NCBI GenBank assembly: GCA_964390985.1
Contig: CAYMKM010000002.1
Coordinates: forward strand, 1-40,895
From: an uncultured Clostridia bacterium
Lineage (GTDB): Bacteria; Bacillota; Limnochordia; DTU080
Reading direction: 5' to 3'
DNA length: 40,895 bases
The notes under the pieces were generated by a model. It saw only the letters and a list, made by a program, of their open reading frames with translations, was not told where the DNA came from and ran no database searches. Position 1 is the stretch's first letter, and every line of letters begins with the position of its first letter. A program made the position numbers and the translations under genes. This document shows, one piece after another, positions 3,350-36,417 of this stretch.

Positions 3350-4510
3350 TTATTGTATAAGACGGGGCCGTATTGAAGCAGCAACACCAGCAGGTAGTAT
3401 TATGCGTATCACCACTTGGCGTTGAAGTGCTTGTAACCAGCCCATACCGTGAATCGCTACCTCTTGATCAATAGGCAACGCTATTTCAACCTCTTCCCAG
3501 CCTAAATCGGGCCAACGCTCGTTACATTTTTGGCATTTAATTAGCATTAGGCCATCTTCCTGCGTCATAAGAGCTTGAAATTTGCTTTCAGTTATGCGGC
3601 GGGCAGCCACTGCCGATGATATGTAAAGACGAATGCCTACGGCTGCAGATTCTGCCGAAGAACTAACCAGCGTTACCGCGGCGAATTCGCCCAAAGTGAT
3701 GCTCTGACCAGGTTTTAGGCGAATTAAGCGACTGCGTAACCGTTTAGTGGACGCTATTTTTTGGCTGCACACACTGCAAACCACATTACAAAGACTGTCT
3801 TTCACTGTTAGATCAGGTGTATCTACTAGCTTTATTTTACTTTTTGGCTCCGGGCTGTTCACCTTTGTGGTTGGATTAACCTTTTTACTACGTCGGCGGT
3901 GACTAACACTGCGTTTACTGTTCGTTGTCGGTGACGATACAGCTTGTTCTGCCGCAGTCGGAGCGTTATCTGGCGTCGTTTTTTTCTTGCGCGTTGGCCT
4001 ACGGGTTCGCCGGCGCGAAACAGCTACAGCTTGTACTTTGTCTTTTCCGTCACTCTCATCATCTATAAGCATATTAGAACTGGTACGGCGTAAGCGTCCT
4101 TTCTTCGCCGTCGTTTGTTTAGATGTATCATTTAATAATTTGAACAGGGCAGTTTTCCCCACACCCGTAGCGCCTATGAGCGCTACGGTTCCCTTCCCGT
4201 GCAACTCCTTTACAACCCATTTCCACAAGTCAGAAATACCAACACGGCTTTTGGCACTGATCACTTGCACATCGCGGACGGAAATATCAATTTGATCCAG
4301 GTATTTATGAACCCAATTTACAACCTGAGTCTCACTCACCTTGGATGGCAATAAATCAAATTTGTTGAGAACCAGCACCATTTTATGTGCATAATTAGCA
4401 ACCACTCTGCGACTGAAGGTGGAGGGAAAATCAGTAGCATCAGCCACATAAATAATCAGATCAGCCGATTCTGCTGACTCTCTGATGGCAGTTAATGTAT
4501 TTTGTTGCAT
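3350..4510 (-). CDS. yqeH: Circularly permuted YqeH-like GTPase, atypical (no N-terminal Zn finger, large basic insert)
   Basis: I chose ATG 4510 (GGAGG SD, 6-nt spacer) over ORF-track start 4573, which overlaps yqeG. Motif order is G4 'NKFD', G5 'SAK', G1 'GATGVGKT', then 'DTPD' at the G3 position. The C-terminal domain ('ITLGEFAAV', 'HGMGW', 'IRPRLIQ') is colinear with B. subtilis YqeH. It lies immediately downstream of yqeG, as in Bacillus. Confidence 0.72.
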   Translation of the reverse strand: MQQNTLTAIRESAESADLIIYVADATDFPSTFSRRVVANYAHKMVLVLNKFDLLPSKVSETQVVNWVHKYLDQIDISVRDVQVISAKSRVGISDLWKWVVKELHGKGTVALIGATGVGKTALFKLLNDTSKQTTAKKGRLRRTSSNMLIDDESDGKDKVQAVAVSRRRTRRPTRKKKTTPDNAPTAAEQAVSSPTTNSKRSVSHRRRSKKVNPTTKVNSPEPKSKIKLVDTPDLTVKDSLCNVVCSVCSQKIASTKRLRSRLIRLKPGQSITLGEFAAVTLVSSSAESAAVGIRLYISSAVAARRITESKFQALMTQEDGLMLIKCQKCNERWPDLGWEEVEIALPIDQEVAIHGMGWLQALQRQVVIRIILPAGVAASIRPRLIQ

Positions 4511-7051: not shown

Positions 7052-7322
7052 TTTCAAGTTCCTCATCGTCATCTACCAAAACTAGTTGATCCTCACCATC
7101 GACGTTTTCTATGCGAAACACCAAATACTCTACTTCTTCGAAGTCTTCATCGTCCATGTCTTCATCGTAGTCTTCTTCTTCTTCATCCATGATGAAGCCT
7201 TCCTCCGGTAATAAAATAAAGTAGCTTTGATCGCCCACCACTACCAACTGCTCTACAGTGAAGTGATGCTCCTGACCCTCTTCATCCAGCAAAGTGATCA
7301 TGTCATTTTCGTGTTCCGTCAT
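6996..7322 (-). CDS. DUF1292 family acidic protein (YrzB-like)
   Basis: 'ITLLDEEGQEHHFTVEQLVVVGDQSYFILLPEE' is the DUF1292 core, followed by a strongly acidic tail. ATG 7322 follows an AGAGGTGG SD and is preferred over TTG 7343. The position between ruvX and mltG is the conserved one. Confidence 0.8.
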   Translation of the reverse strand: MTEHENDMITLLDEEGQEHHFTVEQLVVVGDQSYFILLPEEGFIMDEEEEDYDEDMDDEDFEEVEYLVFRIENVDGEDQLVLVDDDEELESVAAAWADMEEDQDDSED

Positions 7323-28116: not shown

Positions 28117-29301
<1,185 letters not shown>

Positions 29302-29390: not shown

Positions 29391-29413
29391 AGTTATTGAT
29401 AGGAGGGAAAAAT

Positions 29414-30310
29414 ATGCTAGCCATTGAGTTGGAGAACCTTCGTAAAGAGTACCGTAACAAGCGCGGTATCCACGGCCTAACGTTTCAAGTGAAACAAGGC
29501 GAAATCTTCGGTTTCCTGGGCCCCAACGGTGCTGGTAAAAGTACAACCATTCGTACACTCCTAGGGTTATTAACTCCCGACGCTGGTAAAGCATGCATTA
29601 TGGGCCACGATATTGTTACCGACAATATGGCTGTATGCAAGATCACTGGTTACTTACCTGGAGAAAATGCGTTATACAATTACCTAAGTGGAGAAGACAA
29701 CCTACGCTTCTCTTTGTATGTGCGCGGACGGCCAGATTGCTTAGCCCGCGGCAGGCAAATTGCTGATAGTCTTGGCGTTGACCTACGAGCAAAACTACGT
29801 CATTTATCGCACGGCCAGCGGCAAAAGGTAGCCATAGTTGTAGCCTTGGCTCATGATCCGGACGTATTAATCCTAGATGAACCAACTAGCGGGTTAGACC
29901 CCTTAGTACAGGAGACTTTTTTCGATCTAATACGAGCCGAACAAGCGGCAGGTAAAACAGTTTTTATGAGTTCTCACATTCTTTCAGAAGTGGAAGCCCT
30001 CTGTGGTCGGGTAGCTATTATCCGCCAGGGTAACTTGGTTGAAGTGAACGAGGTTGAAGCCTTGCGGCGTAACAAAGTGAAAAGAGTCACTCTCATTTAC
30101 AACCAAACGCCACCCGATGTAACTGCTTGGCCTGGCGTCAGTGAATTATCGGTAGAAACAGGACATGTTCGCTTTGCTTATCAAGGCGATGTAAAAATAT
30201 TATTGCAGCACTTGGCCGAGCAGGATATAGCTGACGTGGCAATTACCGATCCATCGTTAGAAGAAGTGTTTCGCACCTTCTATCGCGAACAAGAGCAGGT
30301 GGTGAACTAA
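29414..30310 (+). CDS. ABC transporter ATP-binding protein (ABC-2/DrrA-type)
   Basis: Walker A is 'GPNGAGKSTT', the signature is 'LSHGQRQKV' and Walker B is 'LILDEPTSGLD'. There is a C-terminal accessory domain. ATG 29414 follows TAGGAGGGA. Confidence 0.92.
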   Translation: MLAIELENLRKEYRNKRGIHGLTFQVKQGEIFGFLGPNGAGKSTTIRTLLGLLTPDAGKACIMGHDIVTDNMAVCKITGYLPGENALYNYLSGEDNLRFSLYVRGRPDCLARGRQIADSLGVDLRAKLRHLSHGQRQKVAIVVALAHDPDVLILDEPTSGLDPLVQETFFDLIRAEQAAGKTVFMSSHILSEVEALCGRVAIIRQGNLVEVNEVEALRRNKVKRVTLIYNQTPPDVTAWPGVSELSVETGHVRFAYQGDVKILLQHLAEQDIADVAITDPSLEEVFRTFYREQEQVVN

Positions 30311-30311
30311 A

Positions 30312-31115
30312 ATGCGCAGCACATTTGCCCTCGTTAAGCAGCATCTTGTTGAACAGCGTTTGTCAACTGTGATTTGGATGGTTGTCCTTAGCCTCCTAAG
30401 TTACATGGTTGTGACTATGGCACCTGCAATTACATCCGATAACTTCTTGTTCGAATTGATAAAAAATACACCGGAGCATTTGTCCAGGTTATACGGCAAC
30501 TTATTCGCTTATAAATACCCGGTCGATGCCTTTCTCCAATTTAAATGGATGTTGTTTATACCTATTTTAACCACCATTTTTGGCATTTTAGCGGCCATGG
30601 GAGCTGTAGCCCGCGATATTGACAATCATACTGCTGATTTCGCCCTCACCTTACCAATTACACGTTATCATCTGCTCTTAGCACGATTTCTCGCCATAGC
30701 CATTAGCATGGCTATGCTATATTTTGTCTCCTACATTATGCTTTGGCTGGGTTTACGCATTCTTGATACCCCTGCATCGCTGATGAATTATGCCTACTTT
30801 TACACGGGAATGTTCTTTATTACCCTAACACTAGCCGCTTTCACCCTATGGTTGAGCGTTTTTGTTGATGAATATGCGAAAGCTGTCCGCTTGGGGCTAG
30901 TGATTGGTGTTTCTTTTTGGGCTTTTTCATTGATCAACCGCATTGCCGGGGGCCCACTTTACCTCAGCAGACTATCTCTTTTTGGGTGGGTCGAAACTGA
31001 ACCGGTAATTGGTCGTGGCATATTTCCCTGGGGTGCTGTGTTTGTTGGTCTAGCATTAACCGCTGGCTTTTTATTGTTAGCTGTTATCAGTTTCAAACGG
31101 AAGCAAATTTCATAA
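30312..31115 (+). CDS. ABC-2 type transporter permease (6 TM)
   Basis: 267 aa and hydrophobic. It starts 1 nt after the ATPase stop and follows a GGTGGTGA SD. Confidence 0.8.
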   Translation: MRSTFALVKQHLVEQRLSTVIWMVVLSLLSYMVVTMAPAITSDNFLFELIKNTPEHLSRLYGNLFAYKYPVDAFLQFKWMLFIPILTTIFGILAAMGAVARDIDNHTADFALTLPITRYHLLLARFLAIAISMAMLYFVSYIMLWLGLRILDTPASLMNYAYFYTGMFFITLTLAAFTLWLSVFVDEYAKAVRLGLVIGVSFWAFSLINRIAGGPLYLSRLSLFGWVETEPVIGRGIFPWGAVFVGLALTAGFLLLAVISFKRKQIS

Positions 31116-31135
31116 AAACTACTAGGTGGTGAACG

Positions 31136-31936
31136 ATGATGTTACTGTTTACCTACCGCTGGCGCGCAGAAGGTAAAAGCCTGATCAACTGGCTAATAAC
31201 TGTAAGCCTAGTGACTTGTGGTGCTTTCATGCTGTTTGTATCATTTATAAACGTAGATGAGATCGCACAATTATTTGGCGAATGGTTGGCTAAAGCCCCT
31301 CCTGCATTGCGTAATTTAATGGGTGGTCAGTTGGTTGTTGCTGAACCGGCTGCTTTTGTAAGCCAAATAATCCTGCAAACCATATTGCCTGGGTTAATTT
31401 TGGTGTATGTATGTTTATCAGTAGCTGCAATTTACACCCGCGATGCCAACGAGGGTAATTTGGAATTTCTCTTATCTTTACCGATAAAACGCTATCGCGT
31501 TTTGGCTGGCCGTTTGTTAGTATTCCTTGTCAGCTTAGCCTTATTGCATGTGGCCATTTTCGCCAGCGCCAATTTGGGTTTATTTATTTGTGGTAAGTCA
31601 GCGAATGCCGCCCGCATTGCCCTTATTCTACTAAACCAATATTTGCTCTTTGTTTGCATAGGCGGGTTGGCGTTTTTGATAAGCTTGGCTTCAAAAGACT
31701 ATAGCAAAATATTGCTAATCACTTTGGCCTGCTTTTTTGGCCTATATAGCATGAATGTATTTATGGATACCAACCAGGACTTCGCTTCTGTTATAAACCC
31801 TTTCTACTATTACAATGCCACTGAAATTTACTCCACGGGGTTAGTACCCTGGCGGAACTTTTTGGTGTTAACTGCATCGTCGCTGTTCTTTTGGGTAAGT
31901 GGTATATGGATATTTTCCCGCAAGCAGATAACGTGA
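31136..31936 (+). CDS. ABC-2 type transporter permease, second paralogous subunit
   Basis: 266 aa with the same topology and a shared central motif ('FALTLPITRYHLLLARFLA' in the first permease, 'FLLSLPIKRYRVLAGRLLV' here). AGGTGGTGA SD. Confidence 0.8.
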   Translation: MMLLFTYRWRAEGKSLINWLITVSLVTCGAFMLFVSFINVDEIAQLFGEWLAKAPPALRNLMGGQLVVAEPAAFVSQIILQTILPGLILVYVCLSVAAIYTRDANEGNLEFLLSLPIKRYRVLAGRLLVFLVSLALLHVAIFASANLGLFICGKSANAARIALILLNQYLLFVCIGGLAFLISLASKDYSKILLITLACFFGLYSMNVFMDTNQDFASVINPFYYYNATEIYSTGLVPWRNFLVLTASSLFFWVSGIWIFSRKQIT

Positions 31937-31940
31937 CTAA

Positions 31941-32699
31941 TTACGAATACATTGCCCGCAAAATAAGGCCTATAAATACAGCCACACTGATACTCATTAG
32001 TGTGCCTAGCAAATAATACTCGGCGTGCACTCGGTTTTCCAGCTCACGAAAGCGGAATATTGATTTAGCGGTAAGCACAAAACCTACTGAAGGAAACAAC
32101 TCCGAGCCAGAGGCTATGGCCAGCACTAGGAGGAACCGTTCGCAAACGCCTATCCACAACCCGGCATTCAGCATTTTTGAATCGCTAGGTAACTTGAGTT
32201 GTTGGGCAAACGGCTCAAGCAAATAAGCTATTACCACTGCTGCCACACTGGTGGCAAACGCAGCCAGCAAAACCGTGCGCAACGCCAACTCGGCTTGCCA
32301 ACCATATGTACCCACTGAAGTACTAGCTATCGCCACAACCTGTTGCTGGCGAAGTAAAGTACCTACGCCTAGTAATACGGCTACATGCAACACTTGATCA
32401 ATTACTAAACCAGTTAGCTGTGTAATATAAGGTCGTAGGTATTCGCCTAAATTAGCTCCAGCGACGTCCTGAGCAGCATGAACTATCCCAATGCCCACTA
32501 TCACACCAGCAAGTACCTTTGCTGACGAAAAACTTATGGTGCCCCAATACTGCAAACCGCATAACACAATAGCAGTCATCGCACTTACAGCTACTATGTG
32601 TCCTAGTAAATCAGCCCCCGTACGCTTCTCCTTAAAGCCCGATTGCATCACAAAATCGGCTAGTATATGTGCCGTTATCAAACCAAGGAATATGGTCAA
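31941..32699 (-). CDS. DUF3307-family polytopic membrane protein
   Basis: 252 aa with about 7-8 TM. The N-terminal 'GLITAHILADFVMQS' is the DUF3307 signature as I remember it. The TTG start forms a TTGA overlap with the SatD-like stop and follows a GGGAGTGA SD. Confidence 0.75.
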   Translation of the reverse strand: MTIFLGLITAHILADFVMQSGFKEKRTGADLLGHIVAVSAMTAIVLCGLQYWGTISFSSAKVLAGVIVGIGIVHAAQDVAGANLGEYLRPYITQLTGLVIDQVLHVAVLLGVGTLLRQQQVVAIASTSVGTYGWQAELALRTVLLAAFATSVAAVVIAYLLEPFAQQLKLPSDSKMLNAGLWIGVCERFLLVLAIASGSELFPSVGFVLTAKSIFRFRELENRVHAEYYLLGTLMSISVAVFIGLILRAMYS

Positions 32700-33385
32700 T
32701 TATCATCACTCCCTGGTAACATTAACGCCGGGAATTCGCGACCCAACGCTAGCAAAGATTGCAAGCCTTTATGGGCTTGCCTATAGGCATTGATGCGTGC
32801 TCGCTGCAAGGTCTCCCATGTTGCCTGGCGAGAGACAAGCTTCTCATTATTTGTCTTTTGATGTTGATGCCAGGGGATCTCTGCTACAAAGTGCCGATAT
32901 TGTGCTGGAGTCATGTGTTTAATGAGATCGTTAAATATACATATATACGCATTAAGTGATTTGCTGTATTGACTCTCCCCCGCTGTGCCAAATCGCAGCC
33001 GATATGTTATATCAGAAAACGTTTTTAATTCGTCCATGGCTAGGCGTGCGGCCTTAAATGCTGTGCCATCCAGTACATTAATATCAACCGGGCCGCGTTG
33101 CGGTATGGGAGTATCTATGGTGCCCAAACCAATGGCACAATGAAATGGCGTATCTTTCATAAAGGCGTATGTATGGCAAAAAAGTTCCCATAGCCCATCC
33201 GGATGGTAATAAACACCCTTCAGCTCGTCGCCCCACACAATTTGAAAGGGCACAGCCAAAGCGGTAGCAAATTGCGCATTCAAATTATCGCGCAAAGCAA
33301 ACAGCTTTCTCTGCAAAGCTGCTCGTTTATTTTGCATCACAGAAGATCCTTGTAGGTCAATAAAAACTACAGCAAATGTATTCAA
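32696..33385 (-). CDS. SatD-family protein (nucleotidyl-cyclase-like N-domain plus HTH-like C-tail)
   Basis: 229 aa. 'VVFIDLQGSS', 'IVWGDELKG', 'CAIGLGTI' and 'LDGTAFKAARLA' occur in that order. The C-terminus reads 'TPAQYRHF...KLVSRQATWETLQRA'. TTG start follows GGGGGGAGG. Confidence 0.7.
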   Translation of the reverse strand: MNTFAVVFIDLQGSSVMQNKRAALQRKLFALRDNLNAQFATALAVPFQIVWGDELKGVYYHPDGLWELFCHTYAFMKDTPFHCAIGLGTIDTPIPQRGPVDINVLDGTAFKAARLAMDELKTFSDITYRLRFGTAGESQYSKSLNAYICIFNDLIKHMTPAQYRHFVAEIPWHQHQKTNNEKLVSRQATWETLQRARINAYRQAHKGLQSLLALGREFPALMLPGSDDN

Positions 33386-33403
33386 AGCCTCCCCCCTTTA
33401 TCA

Positions 33404-33433
33404 AGGATAGGCCTTGACTATAGTACTCGTCAA
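33404..33433 (-). promoter_or_regulatory. Candidate promoter with overlapping palindrome upstream of the SatD-like gene
   Basis: The minus strand reads TTGACG, an 18-nt spacer, then TATCCT. The perfect inverted repeat TAGTACT-N5-AGTACTA (33421-33439) covers the -35 and spacer. Confidence 0.35.
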
Positions 33434-33471
33434 GTACTATGATTGATAACTCACTACGTCAAGCACTAACC

Positions 33472-35373
33472 CTAATCACTGTAGACAAAGCGCAATGTGC
33501 AATTTACGGCCAAATCAAAAATCACTTCGGCAAAGTCGCGACCTTCTCGTTGCACAATACGGTATGCTATTGGTTTTTCATCGAGCAATACACTTCTTAC
33601 CGCCCTGGAACCCTGTTGGGCCGGCGCCAAAAGCGTGTAACCAGTGAGTGGTAGGCTGGTTTTAATGTTAGTTATCGATAACTCTACCTGCAGCACATTA
33701 CCATTCCAGTGCTGAGTTATGCCAACCTGTGAGCGACCTTTATACCAATTGGCCACTTCCAGCGGCGTAGCCCACCAGGCGTTTTTACCACTGTAACCAT
33801 CGAACCCCTTGATATACGCCACGTAGCCTTGCTCCTGTACAAAAGGTTTGGCATTGATATCAGGTGAGTTTGGGTGAACATTGAACGATGCGTGGCCGTT
33901 CATTCTTTCCACAGCATCCACGTAATCGCGCACACGCGCTTTAGCTAGGTCAATGTTCAATTGTCCCAAATAATAAGCCCCATTGTTGTTGGTTTGCACA
34001 CCCTCTTCATTGCGACTGGGCAACTCTAACACTGGTAGAATACGACCGCCCACTTTAATGAAAAAAGGATGAGATGTACCAGTGAAAAACACCTGCTTCC
34101 AATCCATATCGTACCAACTGCTATCGTATGTTAATCCTAGCTGCTCCCACCATAACGGTGCATCTTTATAATAACGAACGTAATGGTGAGCTACGCCTTC
34201 CATTATGCTAATGGGAACGCCAGCCGTTTTGGCGATGGTCTGCATATCCTTACGCATCTTAGCCAAGAATTGGCTCTCCAAAGGTTCTTTATCGGCGTGC
34301 AACCCAACTTCCCATCCGCTTTTATACCAGTTGGCAACCTCTTGGGCAGATTTCATAGATGGTATCAGCACATAGAGAACCGATTTCACACCCCAGCCGG
34401 CTTCTGCTTCCCGTATTTGCCTGGCATAGTAACCATCGCCGCTATCCCAATCATGCTGAATGGTAGCAGCCATATCATAAGCATTAGGCCAATACCACTG
34501 CCAAGCCAGCGGTGTGTCAATTTGATCATAAGCCCAAAGTAATGTCTGCAGCACCAACTTGGTGTATTCATCGCCCCATATTAAATTGGTCTTATCATCA
34601 TTTATATAGGTTTCCTTTATAGCTAGGGCTGTTTGCCAATTAAACGACTTATCGGTCTCGCCAGGTTTGGTAGGAAATATATAGTGCGGTTCCGCTGGTT
34701 CTGTAGCCATCCCCATACCGTAACCTACTGTGGCAAAAGGGTTCACGCCAAAGGTGATAAACCAACCCTTGCCATATTGAGCGATAATCAGTGCATCGCC
34801 ACTGGTTTTTTTAAAGGTGACTTTACCATACCCATTTGCTCCATTAGTTGCCTTAATAATGCCAAACGGCTGACAACCAGGGGGTAATAAAACAGGCAGA
34901 CCGCTACTGTGAACAGAGGTCAAAATGGGATGAGCGGCGTTATGCGTGAAGTTGCCGAACAAGGCTGGTTTCCCGGCAGAGGTTTTAGCTAACACTGTTA
35001 CCCCGGCTGCTGGTAAATCCATATCCAGGCCGCCGGATATGTAAACTCCCCCCTGCTCCACATAGCTAAGGACTGACAGCGCATACTCCTTTGCCAAACT
35101 GGTAGCCGGGTTTACTACTACCTTAAAGCGAGCTAGTTCTTCTTCTGAGGCCAAAGCTTCGGGCGGTATGTCGGTTTTAGCCAACCCGAGGTGCGCAAAT
35201 AGCTGTAATGCACCGTAACTAGCATAATCTTTAGCGCTATTGAGGGTAGTTTGATCCTGCATGGCCACAACCAGACCTATGTTCGCAGTGCCAGAAGTGG
35301 CAGCCCAAACAGTGACTGATTGTGTAAACAGCAAAAATAGTACAGTCCATCGCATAAACCTTTTAGCTTGCAC
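33472..35373 (-). CDS. Secreted multi-domain protein, possible polysaccharide-deacetylase-fold (CE4-like) enzyme
   Basis: The signal peptide is 'MQAKRFMRWTVLFLLFTQSVTVWA/ATS'. The central region 'ATIQHDWDSGDG', 'GVKSVLYVLIP' and 'GWEVGLHADKE' is reminiscent of NodB-type D-x-D and His motifs. GTG start lies 6 nt downstream of GGGAGGGG and 15 nt after the queA stop. Confidence 0.55.
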   Translation of the reverse strand: MQAKRFMRWTVLFLLFTQSVTVWAATSGTANIGLVVAMQDQTTLNSAKDYASYGALQLFAHLGLAKTDIPPEALASEEELARFKVVVNPATSLAKEYALSVLSYVEQGGVYISGGLDMDLPAAGVTVLAKTSAGKPALFGNFTHNAAHPILTSVHSSGLPVLLPPGCQPFGIIKATNGANGYGKVTFKKTSGDALIIAQYGKGWFITFGVNPFATVGYGMGMATEPAEPHYIFPTKPGETDKSFNWQTALAIKETYINDDKTNLIWGDEYTKLVLQTLLWAYDQIDTPLAWQWYWPNAYDMAATIQHDWDSGDGYYARQIREAEAGWGVKSVLYVLIPSMKSAQEVANWYKSGWEVGLHADKEPLESQFLAKMRKDMQTIAKTAGVPISIMEGVAHHYVRYYKDAPLWWEQLGLTYDSSWYDMDWKQVFFTGTSHPFFIKVGGRILPVLELPSRNEEGVQTNNNGAYYLGQLNIDLAKARVRDYVDAVERMNGHASFNVHPNSPDINAKPFVQEQGYVAYIKGFDGYSGKNAWWATPLEVANWYKGRSQVGITQHWNGNVLQVELSITNIKTSLPLTGYTLLAPAQQGSRAVRSVLLDEKPIAYRIVQREGRDFAEVIFDLAVNCTLRFVYSD

Positions 35374-35388: not shown

Positions 35389-36417
35389 TCAGATGAGTAA
35401 CATTGCATCTCCGAAACTGAAAAAGCGATACTGCAAGCGCACTGCTTCAGCATAGGCTGCCATAACACGCTCACGCGTTGCAAAAGCACTGACCAGCATA
35501 ATGAGTGTGGATTTGGGAAGATGAAAATTGGTGATTAACCCATCAATCGCCTTAAATTGATAACCTGGGTAGATAAAAATATCGGTCTCGCCTATACCAG
35601 GTTTAATGTGTCCATCATTATCAACTTGGGTCTCCAGTGTACGGGCAGTAGTGGTACCTACTGCAATAATTCGGCCACCCGCTTGCCGGGCAGCGTTAAT
35701 GCGCGTCGCTACATCGTCATTCACCACAAAGCTCTCATGATGCATCACATGCTCTTCTACTACATCCACTTGCACCGGGCGAAAAGTACCTAACCCTACA
35801 TGCAAAGTGATATACTCAATACTAACACCCGCTTGTAGCAAACTATGCAACAACTCGGGCGTAAAATGTAGCCCCGCAGTGGGAGCCGCAGCAGAACCGA
35901 CAACCTTGCTATATACAGTTTGATACCGCTCAGGATCAGCCAATTTTTCTTTTATATAAGGTGGTAAAGGCATCTGACCCAGTTTATTGAGTACTGCCTC
36001 AAATGACTCTCCCTGCCATGTAAAACCAACCAGTCGCCCTCCGGCCGCAGTAGTATCCTCTATGGTGGCTACCAGCTCGCCCTCTCCAAACACTACACGC
36101 ACACCCGGACGCAAGCGCCTCCCAGGACGGACCAGAGCTTCCCAGTGAGTAACGCTCTTCCTATGCAACAACAACAATTCAACCGCACCGCCACCGGGTA
36201 ACCGTCGTCCTAGTAAGCGCGCTGGAATCACTCGTGAGTCGTTGACCACCAGGCAATCTCCGGGTCGTATTAACGAAGGGAGGTCACTAAAATGATGATG
36301 TGTAATAGCACCCGTTTGCCGTTGCATTACCAGTAAGCGAGCCGCATGGCGCGGCTCCAACGGTACTTGCGCAATCAGCTCTGCGGGCAGATAATAGTCA
36401 AAATCGGTCACCTGCAC
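35389..36417 (-). CDS. queA: S-adenosylmethionine:tRNA ribosyltransferase-isomerase
   Basis: '[18 protein letters not shown]', '[11 protein letters not shown]', 'MPLPPYI' and '[10 protein letters not shown]' match QueA. Confidence 0.95.

Follow-up and report, generated by a model that had tools for sequence, protein, structure and literature searches.

What is the role of a satD-like gene and the DUF3307 gene that overlaps it, and does the pair form a second-messenger circuit, a defence system or an operon of another kind? The question is raised by a stretch of DNA of 40,895 nucleotides (the window), in which the first-pass annotation had read the two genes as a candidate nucleotide-signalling or cyclase-effector module. 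SatD and DUF3307 are families that are named but functionally blank; in the literature searched, no biochemical function was found for either of them, and nothing was found connecting SatD with a cyclase.

The gene pair and its families

The two genes lie on the minus strand, the satD-like gene first, and include the following features.

32696-33385, minus strand: satD-like gene, 229 aa, TTG start, TGA stop (ORF list)
31941-32699, minus strand: gene for the DUF3307 / SatE-type membrane protein, 252 aa, TTG start (ORF list)
32696-32699, minus strand: stop/start overlap TTGA of the two genes, 4 nt (tcaa on the plus strand)
33388-33396, minus strand: satD Shine-Dalgarno sequence GGGGGGAGG, 2 nt 5' of the SatD TTG, read from the sequence
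32709-32713, minus strand: Shine-Dalgarno sequence GGGAG of the DUF3307 gene, 9 nt 5' of its TTG, within satD

The overlap, a Shine-Dalgarno sequence for each ORF and the location of the pair between queA (35389-36417) and tgt (28117-29274) had all been described in the first-pass annotation and were confirmed. The wedge between queA and tgt also contains a 633-aa ORF with no identified function and, on the opposite strand, a three-gene ABC-2 transporter; it is slightly richer in AT than its flanks, and no more than that. A Rfam scan of the window gave no match.

The assignment of the two proteins to their families held, both exceeding the Pfam gathering cut-offs: the first matched SatD (PF16264) at 32.7 bits over residues 16-170 (cut-off 29) and the second DUF3307 (PF11750) at 38.1 bits over residues 3-116 (cut-off 23). 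An exhaustive HMMER search gave 1408 SatD clusters at E<=1e-3, and the family comprises about 1400 clusters at 50% identity; 148 divergent representatives (17-44% identity) were aligned, and Pfam SatD was matched by 146 of them, while all 75 aligned relatives of the membrane protein matched Pfam DUF3307. The pair of the window belongs to a small divergent subfamily with just 17 close relatives among 5.8 billion clusters, and its SatD shares 18-23% identity with typical SatD. The families span Firmicutes (among them oral streptococci and gut Blautia), Chloroflexota, Proteobacteria and haloarchaea. Longer SatD homologues were considered as possible SatD-DUF3307 fusions and rejected as such; their extra parts are TPR, hexapeptide or additional HTH (XRE, GerE) domains.

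The names come from Streptococcus mutans, in which SMU.1057-1059 were designated SatCDE, within the ffh/ylxM cluster. SatE (SMU.1057) of this species is a membrane-vesicle protein, and the sat pair, in the ffh operon, is mildly induced under fructose stress. The window pair shares with S. mutans SatD/SatE the Pfam families and the order satD then DUF3307 gene, which is kept in all sampled loci; it differs in being divergent, in the degenerate middle helix of its HTH, and in lying between queA and tgt instead of adjoining ffh. Kremer and co-workers are said to have found in 2001 that only ffh explained the acid sensitivity associated with the S. mutans sat operon, so that satD and satE are left without a known phenotype.

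A scan of genome contigs with a SatD subfamily profile gave 3 loci only, and adjacency was therefore measured from the DUF3307 side in metagenomes. There, satD was found directly upstream and on the same strand in 68/68 assessable DUF3307 loci, i.e. those in which 390 nt or more of DNA precede the gene, and the pair occurs also in Tetragenococcus, Blautia, Haloplasma, Desulfohalobiaceae, Limnocylindrales, Limnochordia and the haloarchaeon Halorientalis; the co-localisation of the two families on which the earlier reading depended is thus real. Stop and start overlap in 41 of 73 pairs, by 4 nt in 25 of these, and the 4-nt overlap is retained in Halorientalis and in three close relatives (L097, L098, L099). 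Close relatives hold the pair amid unrelated contexts. The DUF3307 protein is an obligate SatD partner, usually translationally coupled to it, and the TTGA overlap of the window probably serves the coupling usual across the family.

Predicted structures and conserved residues

Two domains were delimited in SatD.

32981-33385, minus strand: N-terminal palm (cyclase-like) domain, aa 1-135, from AlphaFold, Foldseek, conservation and hhalign
32696-32980, minus strand: C-terminal helical domain, aa 136-229, with sigma70-region-4-type HTH homology via relatives

The AlphaFold model of SatD (pLDDT 87.8, pTM 0.85) shows an N-terminal domain with the topology beta1(3-11)-alpha(18-38)-beta2(43-50)-beta3(54-59)-alpha(62-75)-beta4(81-89)-alpha(108-120)-beta(130-134), which contains the palm order beta-alpha-beta-beta-alpha-beta. 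In this predicted structure D10 stands at the end of beta1, G52-D53-E54 form part of the hairpin between beta2 and beta3, and the next helix bears R114 and K121. The comparison of the model with the PDB by Foldseek gave E values from 2.5e-4 to 3e-3, a probability of about 1.0 and TM scores to the target of 0.45-0.58 for the best ~50 matches. These were class III adenylate and guanylate cyclases, Pycsar cUMP synthases (7r65, 8jsz), GGDEF domains, GTP cyclohydrolase III and mCpol (Panoptes mCpol, 9pd0), the lone other match being a type III CRISPR Csm complex, the Cas10 subunit of which is itself a palm polymerase. A palm/cyclase fold had been proposed from sequence motifs, and the structure search bears it out. 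In a viral structure library only phage GGDEF and cyclase proteins were matched, and nothing further.

The residues at the putative site are among the best conserved of the family. D10 is present in 145 of the 148 relatives, the remaining ones having gaps, G52 and D53 in all 148 and E54 in 143, so the two aspartates proposed earlier as metal ligands are indeed conserved. High values were also found for S14 (146/148), G86 (142/148), G88 (144/148), D106 (139/148), G107 (148/148) and R114 (140/148), and position 121 is Lys or Arg in 120/148. All four cyclase-landmark motifs that had been pointed out are present, and the best conserved residues of the family fall in three of them; the fourth, G-x-x-[VF]-[NK]-x-A-[AS]-R, has one residue fewer than in the class III template, so that its alignment is approximate.

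With hhalign, in which the targets were PDB-derived alignments of class III cyclases and GGDEF domains, the correspondence was weak but in register. Against seven PDB class III cyclases (P 0.002, weak) D10 fell on the first metal Asp, G52-D53 on the second, and the SatD segment IGLGT on IGINTG; against three GGDEF domains (P 0.009, weak) G-D-E-L was placed opposite G-E-E-F. The SatD of the window gave no cyclase or GGDEF match in Pfam or NCBIfam (for Pfam Guanylate_cyc, none at E<=1), neither the Guanylate_cyc nor the GGDEF model reached a reportable score with any family member, Guanylate_cyc being absent from the 25 commonest Pfam families of the 148 relatives, and a SatD profile run against PDB sequences found no cyclase. 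The cyclase register was seen solely by structure comparison and by hhalign against the PDB-derived alignments.

The N-terminal domain of SatD is therefore predicted to adopt the same palm fold as GGDEF domains and class III cyclases, with a two-metal acidic constellation. Likeness to these enzymes extends to the Asp that ends beta1, followed by a small, Ser/Thr-containing segment resembling a phosphate loop, to the G-D(-E) hairpin, to [IV]-G-x-G on beta4 and to Arg/Lys on the following helix. It also differs from them, the SatD domain being shorter (~135 aa), fused to an HTH and without an HMM-level sequence match; the beta4-beta5 dimerisation arm of class III cyclases is absent from the model, in which residues 90-107 have no strands. 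The class III transition-state Asn (N-x-x-x-R) is out of register in the SatD alignment: around R114 the residue at R-4 is Phe and that at R-3 is His, Tyr or Lys, and the local hhalign alignment ends before this helix. No SatD equivalents of the base-specifying pair (Lys/Asp or Glu/Cys) were identified. The hairpin reads x-G-D-E-[FL] (W51 in the window protein, mostly Leu elsewhere), so that there is one Gly only at the position of GGDEF and the pattern GG[DE]EF is not reproduced; nor was a conserved RxxD inhibitory site found, which in GGDEF domains lies five residues upstream of the hairpin, where residues 44-48 of the window protein are AVPFQ. The invariant acidic residues could just bind a metal or a nucleotide ligand, without turnover.

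The C-terminal domain appears from its relatives to descend from a sigma70-region-4-type HTH. Sigma70_r4 is matched by 39/148 and Sigma70_r4_2 by 32/148 SatD relatives, the relative L010 reaches 28.9 bits, above the Pfam cut-off of 24.1, and the family pattern is WTxxQ ... VSRQxVxxxLxRA. The sigma-r4/LuxR-style HTH read earlier into this region thus stands for the family, but the window protein is atypical and itself matched no Pfam HTH model. In its subfamily the variable, disordered residues 177-186 (pLDDT <50) take the place of the first HTH helix, and AlphaFold predicts no helix at residues 170-186 of the window protein, where one was expected; the recognition-helix region S185-R197 is invariant in the subfamily. 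A cyclase-fold domain and a sigma4/LuxR-type HTH are combined in one polypeptide also in Rv0386 of Mycobacterium tuberculosis, a large STAND-type protein composed of a class III cyclase, an ATPase, TPR repeats and a LuxR HTH, and TPR repeats occur likewise in some SatD relatives. In Rv0386-type regulators, however, the Guanylate_cyc domain is canonical and a dedicated membrane partner is lacking, whereas SatD is a minimal two-domain protein.

For the partner, about 7-8 TM segments had been expected; eight TM helices were predicted, and the AlphaFold model (pLDDT 91.1) shows eight long helices. Invariant polar residues are H11, D15, Q19, H34, H74, D78, D101, Q102 and H105, and E187, R188, K212, R216, E227 and Y228 are invariant as well. 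The polar residues noticed in the first-pass annotation within hydrophobic spans, in the motifs HILADFVMQ, VHAAQD, IDQVLH and GVCERF, are exactly invariant ones (H11, D15, Q19, H74, D78, D101, Q102, H105, E187 and R188). By the positive-inside rule, applied to the sequence and the modelled helix limits, the His/Asp cluster probably faces the cytoplasm. No fold match to the model was found in the PDB (best E 0.8). A Cytochrom_B_N_2 match of the protein was discarded, being faint (E 0.39) and absent from the relatives.

Operator-like sites upstream of satD and the readings they support

The DNA upstream of satD contains a cluster of repeated elements.

33400-33418, minus strand: operator-like site 3, GTCAAGGCCTATCCTTGAT, imperfect palindrome GTCAAG-N7-CTTGAT with a -10-like TATCCT in the spacer
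33429-33447, minus strand: operator-like site 2, ATCAATCATAGTACTTGAC, at a distance of 29 bp from site 3, with the -35-like TTGACG as right arm
33458-33476, minus strand: operator-like site 1, ATTAGGGTTAGTGCTTGAC, 29 bp from site 2, overlapping the stop codon of the upstream 633-aa ORF
33420-33440, no strand: perfect palindrome ATAGTACT-N5-AGTACTAT, between sites 3 and 2 and overlapping site 2
33404-33433, minus strand: candidate sigma70-like promoter TTGACG-18 nt-TATCCT, 9/12 matches, a consensus match alone

The palindrome, placed earlier at about 33421-33439, has perfect 8-bp arms and is the sole copy within the window; the three operator-like sites are the only clustered matches in the 40.9-kb window. 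The candidate promoter would put the transcription start just 5' of the satD Shine-Dalgarno sequence.

Such phased operator arrays 5' of satD are described here for the first time, and they are not confined to the window. The best self-similarity period upstream of satD was 28-30 bp in 33/63 loci and 58 bp in 6 more, compared with 10/88 other intergenic controls for the 28-30 bp period (Fisher p 4.8e-8); a three-copy register was present in 25 of 63 regions upstream of satD and in 1 of 62 coding-region controls. The units are 2-3 imperfect inverted repeats, phased at 28-29 bp and overlapping promoter-like hexamers, and their half-sites vary by clade (CTTGAC in the window subfamily; TATAGTA, GGCCGGA and GTTCGCC elsewhere). 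Since phased palindromes cover a promoter-like site, the sequence points to SatD as autoregulator of its own operon. By analogy, Lrp/AsnC-type regulators likewise join a domain (a ferredoxin-like effector domain) to an HTH and bind sites phased at ~30 bp; the folds and the domain order differ.

The conserved phased operators speak for an autoregulated regulator/membrane-protein operon rather than for the Pycsar/CBASS analogy. We regard it as about evenly balanced whether satD and the DUF3307 gene form a self-contained, autoregulated operon of the SatD/SatE type, acting as a membrane-coupled, nucleotide-using regulatory module and not in abortive infection. SatD dimers would bind the phased sites and repress their own operon, and the palm domain would be catalytically competent, binding Mg/Mn-NTP and yielding a cyclic or otherwise nucleotidylated product. 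This chemistry would be coupled to the membrane partner, produced at about 1:1, whose polar cluster (four His, three Asp and two Gln, with several Lys/Arg/Glu) would be turned toward the cytoplasmic face and which may serve as input, controlling SatD, or as output, binding or hydrolysing the SatD product. The outcome would be read out as de-repression of the operon.

A simpler account, which we consider rather unlikely but by no means far-fetched, makes SatD a ligand-sensing autorepressor with a non-catalytic palm domain that senses a divalent metal or metal-nucleotide, and the DUF3307 protein the membrane hydrolase or metal transporter under its control, on the model of CzrA-CzrB or TetR-TetA. 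In favour of this account are the HTH, the phased operators across the promoter-like site, the regulator gene coming first and coupled to the membrane-protein gene, the heterogeneous, housekeeping-type neighbours, and the HxxxD, HxxxD and DQxxH motifs in the partner's TM helices, which are reminiscent of the transport sites (HxxxD/DxxxD) of cation-diffusion-facilitator proteins. However, the conserved beta1 Asp, the G-D-E hairpin, the Ser/Arg after beta1 and the helix Arg and Lys together make up the full constellation for nucleotidyl transfer and go beyond a mere metal site, the invariance of G52-D53 in 148/148 relatives would be unusual in a sensor domain, and the partner resembled no transporter family or fold in the searches.

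A further possibility, judged improbable, is a bifunctional enzyme-repressor with an importer, as in BirA/BioY and NadR/PnuC, in which a bifunctional enzyme-repressor is associated with a cognate membrane protein: SatD would nucleotidylate a small molecule brought in by the membrane protein and so trap it in the cell, and the product would be the corepressor at the phased operators. The architecture matches (a nucleotidyl-transfer-type enzyme domain joined to an HTH that autoregulates the operon, and a dedicated membrane protein), although this is analogy and the folds and domain order differ from those of SatD; the broad distribution, Archaea included, and the lack of a defence signature are also in its favour. 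Nothing hints at a substrate, though, the neighbours indicate no conserved pathway, the His/Asp cluster of the partner is more like a metal site than like a vitamin-type transporter, and we know of no palm-fold protein acting as a small-molecule adenylyltransferase of the kind proposed for SatD.

Genomic neighbourhoods and the meaning of the pair

The likeness to Pycsar and CBASS drawn in the first-pass annotation would make the pair an anti-phage module of the Pycsar/CBASS/Panoptes type, in which a cyclic nucleotide made by SatD on infection activates the DUF3307 protein, the cell is killed or arrested, and the HTH serves autoregulation only. Pycsar (PycC with a PycTM or PycTIR effector) and Panoptes (mCpol + 2TM) do resemble the pair in having a small palm-fold cyclase just upstream of a membrane protein, their enzymes are among the structural matches of SatD, the two-gene unit shifts between contexts, and a few loci lie near restriction, IS or recombinase genes. 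However, the effectors of those systems are defined by a cNMP-binding or SAVED sensor, and the partner showed neither these nor another soluble sensor domain, matching DUF3307 only; no cNMP_binding match occurred among its 75 relatives. SatD further differs from them in its HTH and phased operators, and its predicted fold is a cyclase-type palm and not the Pol-beta-like CD-NTase of CBASS.

Context speaks against defence as well. The 150 neighbours of the pair comprised 156 Pfam families, heterogeneous and of housekeeping type, and among them the expected defence-island enrichment was not seen, the PADLOC matches being scattered and mostly to generic domains. An apparent enrichment of cNMP_binding, in 3 of the 150 neighbours, was rejected as independent evidence because it derives from one syntenic soil clade (L010, L025, L030, L042, L050). 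Neither SatD nor the DUF3307 protein matched any family of the PADLOC models (E<=1), SatD was found in none of 50,697 phage genomes and on 8 of 72,556 plasmids, and in S. mutans the pair sits in the ffh operon and responds mildly to fructose stress. A defence role is accordingly very unlikely. From the first reading the fold, the conservation of the aspartates and the co-localisation survive, but not the analogy with Pycsar/CBASS-like effectors.

Least probable of all is a sigma/anti-sigma-like pair, with SatD as an ECF-sigma-like protein whose palm replaces sigma2 and which the membrane protein sequesters until a signal sends it to TTGAC-type sites: the sigma70 region 4-like C-terminal domain, the half-site CTTGAC of the window subfamily, which is a -35-like hexamer, and the gene order and stop/start overlap, comparable to those of ECF sigma/anti-sigma operons, recall such a pair, but the half-sites of other clades are unrelated to it, the sites, palindromic and phased, are of the kind bound by dimeric repressors and are not single -35 boxes, SatD has no sigma2 domain to bind core RNA polymerase, and the pair is present in haloarchaea, which are without sigma factors.

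Returning to the autoregulated, nucleotide-using operon, it is tempting to go further, and we do so tentatively, expecting to be wrong rather oftener than right: SatD/SatE may be an unrecognised signalling module of bacteria and some archaea, in which a minimal cyclase-fold enzyme with a sigma4-type HTH makes a nucleotide signal or nucleotidylates a substrate, acts with an eight-helix metal-binding membrane protein whose fold has no solved relative, and occupies 29-bp-phased operators as several dimers, thereby controlling its own operon. If this were true, a new class of nucleotide cyclase or transferase would be at hand, together with a membrane protein, likewise new, that receives or hydrolyses its product.

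The pair offers three handles for experiment, namely the predicted and conserved two-metal palm site (D10, D53, E54, R114), the candidate DNA target at 33400-33476, made up of three sites and matched in other clades by equivalents specific to each, and the obligate membrane partner with its conserved His/Asp pocket. Should SatD prove inactive, a cyclase fold would have been re-used as the sensor of a repressor; should it be active, the cyclase/GGDEF/mCpol superfamily would gain a new, minimal branch with a direct link to transcription, and nucleotide chemistry would have in DUF3307 a membrane partner of a new kind.

The overlapping satD and DUF3307 genes

The window carries a gene for a SatD protein followed directly by one for a DUF3307-type membrane protein, hereafter the partner. 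The genes and signals considered are the following:

28117-29274, minus strand: tgt, flanking gene
29396-31936, plus strand: ABC-2 type transporter (ATPase and two ABC2_membrane_2 permeases)
31941-32699, minus strand: DUF3307 gene, 252 aa, TTG start
GGGAG, minus strand, 9 nt before the DUF3307 TTG: Shine-Dalgarno sequence of the DUF3307 gene (sequence reading)
32696-33385, minus strand: satD, 229 aa, TTG start
GGGGGGAGG, minus strand, ending 2 nt before the satD TTG: Shine-Dalgarno sequence of satD (sequence reading)
35389-36417, minus strand: queA, flanking gene

The satD stop overlaps the DUF3307 start in the TTGA common to both ORFs (32696-32699); this 4-nt overlap, the separate Shine-Dalgarno sequences and the location between queA and tgt were all borne out as described in the first-pass annotation. 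Both proteins score above their Pfam thresholds (SatD, 32.7 bits with a cut-off of 29; DUF3307, 38.1 bits with a cut-off of 23), and neither matched any model of NCBIfam or PADLOC. The minus-strand flanks form a Firmicute-type conserved block, in which queA is accompanied by a 7TM-HD gene, ybeY, dgkA, cdd and era, and tgt, across the interval, by recJ, apt and relA. The queA-tgt interval is occupied by a 633-aa family-less protein, the pair, and the three-gene transporter on the opposite strand. The 633-aa ORF (33472-35373, minus strand), placed between queA and satD, is hydrophobic at its N-terminus and was assigned to no family by Pfam, NCBIfam, PADLOC or PHROGs, its sole match being a sub-threshold one to Glyco_hydro_42M (22.2 bits). 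The transporter converges on the DUF3307 gene, the stop codons being 4 nt apart (31936, 31941) with no predicted terminator-like site in between.

The gene upstream of DUF3307 was inspected for five distant homologues from named genomes: a SatD gene lies directly upstream in Tetragenococcus, Blautia and Haloplasma, and SatD-like genes unlabelled by Pfam in Desulfohalobiaceae and Limnocylindrales. When 80 metagenomic DUF3307 loci (25-50% identity) were scanned with HMMs made in this analysis, satD was found immediately upstream on the same strand in all 68 loci whose upstream DNA extends to 390 nt or more, the remaining 12 ending too near the DUF3307 gene for judging. The co-localisation expected of the functional module proposed earlier is thus found in every assessable metagenomic locus as well as in named genomes. 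Stop and start overlap in 41 of 73 non-redundant complete pairs (by 4 nt in 25) and are separated by 0-30 nt in 18; close relatives keep the 4-nt overlap amid unrelated neighbours (two-partner secretion, sugar ABC/ADH, IS66), and the same overlapping pair occurs on a haloarchaeal plasmid. The 150 nearest neighbours of the pairs are spread over 156 Pfam families, the commonest seen five times, and include no third conserved component. These data establish the DUF3307 protein as an obligate, usually translationally coupled partner of SatD.

On Agrobacterium tumefaciens pAt (locus L101, 3626-4088), satD is followed by an ORF whose match to the partner is confined to the C-terminal half (profile positions 140-245); this ORF is a short variant or the remnant of a decayed partner. 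Among the sampled DUF3307 loci with ample DNA upstream, one alone lacks satD (L094, an IMG/VR contig, ~3419-4010); since the DUF3307 match starts at profile position 42, this gene may be truncated.

Predicted architecture of SatD

Close relatives of the window SatD are rare (17 found among 5.8 billion clusters), and the family comprises 1408 cluster representatives at E<=1e-3 in an exhaustive profile search. The AlphaFold model, based on an alignment of 17 sequences, is confident (pLDDT 87.8, pTM 0.85) and gives residues 1-135 a beta-alpha-beta-beta-alpha-beta topology. Its top 50 PDB matches (Foldseek) are cyclase-type palm domains, with the exception of one type III CRISPR Csm complex, in agreement with the palm fold suggested from motifs in the first-pass annotation. 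They comprise eukaryotic and bacterial class III guanylyl and adenylyl cyclases, GGDEF domains, GTP cyclohydrolase III, the Pycsar cUMP synthases 7r65 and 8jsz and Panoptes mCpol, with E from 2.5e-4, probability ~1.0 and TM normalised to target of 0.45-0.58.

Conservation of residues in the SatD family alignment (numbering of the window SatD; 148 representatives, 17-44% identical to it)
D10: 145/148, remainder gaps
S14: 146/148
G52: 148/148
D53: 148/148
E54: 143/148
G86: 142/148
G88: 144/148
D106: 139/148
G107: 148/148
R114: 140/148

In the model D10 stands at the end of beta1, and the triplet G52-D53-E54 lies in the beta2-beta3 hairpin; in this fold these are the places where class III cyclases have their two metal-binding acidic residues and GGDEF domains their GG[DE]EF hairpin. 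Both putative metal-binding Asp residues, D10 and D53, are conserved throughout the alignment, and the predicted palm keeps the two-metal constellation intact.

The SatD family profile was also aligned by hhalign with the PDB sequences of seven class III domains and three GGDEF domains, with weak statistics (P 0.002 and 0.009, respectively). In this weakly scored register VVFIDLQGSS falls on ITILTSDLRGFT, VWGDE on FMGDG and AIGLGT on GIGINTG of the class III domains, while G-D-E-L falls on G-E-E-F and K121 on the Lys of YxAKxxGRN of the GGDEF domains. Three of the four cyclase-type motifs proposed earlier therefore stand in the proposed register; the fourth is only approximate, the G107-R114 spacing being one residue shorter than in G-x-x-V-N-x-A-[AS]-R, so that the class III Asn position is taken by Phe. 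Cyclase and GGDEF sequence models matched no SatD member (window protein, PDB profile search, 148 relatives), so that the relation to cyclases is based on fold prediction and active-site constellation, not on family membership.

The C-terminal domain of the family is a helix-turn-helix nearest to sigma70 region 4: Sigma70_r4 matches 39 of the 148 members and Sigma70_r4_2 matches 32, many are matched by other HTH models, and a Limnocylindrales-type relative lies above the Pfam threshold (28.9 bits; cut-off 24.1). No HTH model matched the window SatD, in which the expected first helix is not predicted as helical and residues 177-186 have pLDDT below 50, so that the earlier label 'HTH-like' is right by descent yet describes an atypical domain. 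The 177-186 stretch varies within the window subfamily, and the recognition-helix region S185-R197 is invariant.

Extra domains were observed in the SatD relatives P0141, P0189, P0191, P0216 and P0253, none of which is fused to DUF3307. Some have C-terminal TPR repeats, accompanied in one case by an RNPP-like match and in one by hexapeptide repeats; others have a tandem SatD plus GerE/Sigma70_r4, or an XRE HTH at the N-terminus.

The phased operator-like array upstream of satD

Comparison of the DNA upstream of satD with that of four relatives (44-57% protein identity) showed copies of GTCA(A/G)G-N7-CTTGAC exactly 29 bp apart in all of them, the remaining DNA being unalignable. The three window sites, whose arms were also reported by a repeat finder, are the only clustered pattern matches in the 40.9 kb:

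33400-33418, minus strand: operator-like site 3
33429-33447, minus strand: operator-like site 2
33458-33476, minus strand: operator-like site 1

Their TTGAC/TTGAT elements lie at -19, -48 and -77 from the satD start codon, and in a sigma70-like match to consensus (TTGACG, 18 nt, TATCCT) the first hexamer comes from the right arm of site 2 and the second from the spacer of site 3. The palindrome noticed in the first-pass annotation is real (ATAGTACT-N5-AGTACTAT, 33420-33440, the only copy in the window); it lies in the gap between sites 3 and 2 and extends into the latter.

The stop codon of the 633-aa ORF falls within site 1. The best promoter-like match nearby (33414-33443, plus strand; TTGACT, 18 nt, TATGAT; 10/12) points in the direction opposite to satD and would read the 633-aa gene in antisense; it probably arises as a by-product of the palindromes. 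A further match to the operator pattern, GTCAGGAGCATCACTTCAC at 7258-7276 with 1 mismatch, lies between an ORF that ends at 7072 and one that starts at 7303; the window has 11 pattern matches against ~4 expected by chance, and this single site may therefore not be meaningful.

The 28-29 bp phasing is a trait of the satD family, and the site sequence varies among clades. Arrays of two or three imperfect palindromes with clade-specific half-sites are kept from Firmicutes to Proteobacteria and haloarchaea, and besides the window were seen upstream of satD in loci L002, L004, L036, L038, L053, L093 and L097-L101.

Repeat units of satD upstream arrays
Tetragenococcus: TTGATTC...GAATCAA
Locus L036: TTTTAAG-N8-CTTAAAA
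Locus L053: TATAGTA-N6-TACTATA
Locus L093: GGCCGGA...TCGGCC
Halorientalis: GTTCGCC-N6-GGCGAAC
Agrobacterium: ACCCA-N5-TGGGT, at 28 bp

Within 200 nt upstream of satD the best self-similarity period was 28-30 bp in 33/63 loci and 58 bp in 6 more, against 28-30 bp in 10/88 control intergenic regions of the same loci (Fisher p 4.8e-8); three copies in register were present in 25/63 satD upstream regions versus 1/62 coding-region controls. On the simplest reading of these sequences SatD would bind the palindromes as dimers and autoregulate, the half-sites co-varying with the regulator. Conservation of the operators in the window subfamily argues that its unusual C-terminal domain is still DNA-binding.

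The membrane partner and the proposed mode of action

The AlphaFold model of the partner (75 sequences; pLDDT 91.1, pTM 0.88) consists of eight long helices, for which Foldseek found no structural relative in the PDB (best E 0.8), and partner relatives show no recurrent Pfam family besides DUF3307. Residues H11, D15, Q19, H34, H74, D78, D101, Q102, H105, G180, G184, E187, R188, K212, R216, E227 and Y228 vary in no more than 2 of the 75 relatives, if at all, and all polar residues pointed out earlier belong to this set. Lys/Arg-rich loops are formed by residues 18-27, 88-94, 168-175 and 216-225, and the positive-inside rule, applied to the sequence and the predicted helix limits, would place most of these conserved residues toward the cytoplasmic side. 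Such a placement fits a metal and/or phosphate-binding pocket, in which the residues would cluster. The N-terminal four-helix His/Asp half (residues 1-110) matches phrog_2470 (E 4.5e-7), a family of 119-aa phage membrane proteins equivalent to this half standing alone; SatD, unlike it, is without a phage counterpart. DUF3307 is mentioned in one paper on a Ralstonia jumbo phage.

The window pair belongs to the same families, and forms the same gene pair, as SatD-SatE of S. mutans, the first to be named. In that species the genes lie within the ffh/ylxM cluster, which is induced two- to threefold by fructose. In the searchable literature no cyclase fold, DNA target or function assigned to SatD or DUF3307 was found.

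A combined model is proposed with moderate confidence, in which SatD would be an autorepressor of its own operon whose palm domain would bind NTP and probably turn it over. The membrane partner, produced in equal amounts, would gate SatD activity or receive its product, and the outcome of this interplay would set operon expression. It is rather unlikely, although foremost among the alternatives, that within the same logic of regulator and membrane protein the palm senses a metal or nucleotide without catalysis and the partner acts in transport or hydrolysis. A BirA/NadR-like enzyme-repressor accompanied by an importer is improbable.

Slightly more doubtful still is a Pycsar-like defence module, the architecture of Pycsar and CBASS having been invoked in the first-pass annotation. 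The predicted SatD model has its catalytic fold in common with Guanylate_cyc, GGDEF, Pycsar and CBASS proteins, but the pair lacks the sequence and partner features by which membership of these groups is defined, and the likeness to Pycsar/CBASS is confined to layout and fold. Neither protein is matched by PADLOC, PADLOC matches among neighbours are scattered, and the partner has no cyclic-nucleotide-binding or SAVED-type domain. A typical SatD used as query had no match in 50,697 phage genomes and was found in 8 of 72,556 plasmids, mostly megaplasmids. cNMP-binding neighbours are confined to one clade and therefore reflect conserved synteny, not an independent association. In that soil Chloroflexota-like clade (L010, L025, L030, L042, L050) the region preceding satD has a conserved gene for a stand-alone cyclic-nucleotide-binding-domain protein of ~130-160 aa; in L025 and L050 it is the second gene before satD, a ~510-aa ORF separating the two. 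The least probable reading, a sigma/anti-sigma-like pair, is made unlikely by the occurrence of the pair in archaea and the palindromic nature of the sites.

On the predicted structure, SatD would be a cyclase-fold domain wired to a helix-turn-helix, with a dedicated membrane partner. The SatD/DUF3307 system is widespread and functionally blank, and its activity, so far predicted only, is now directly testable.
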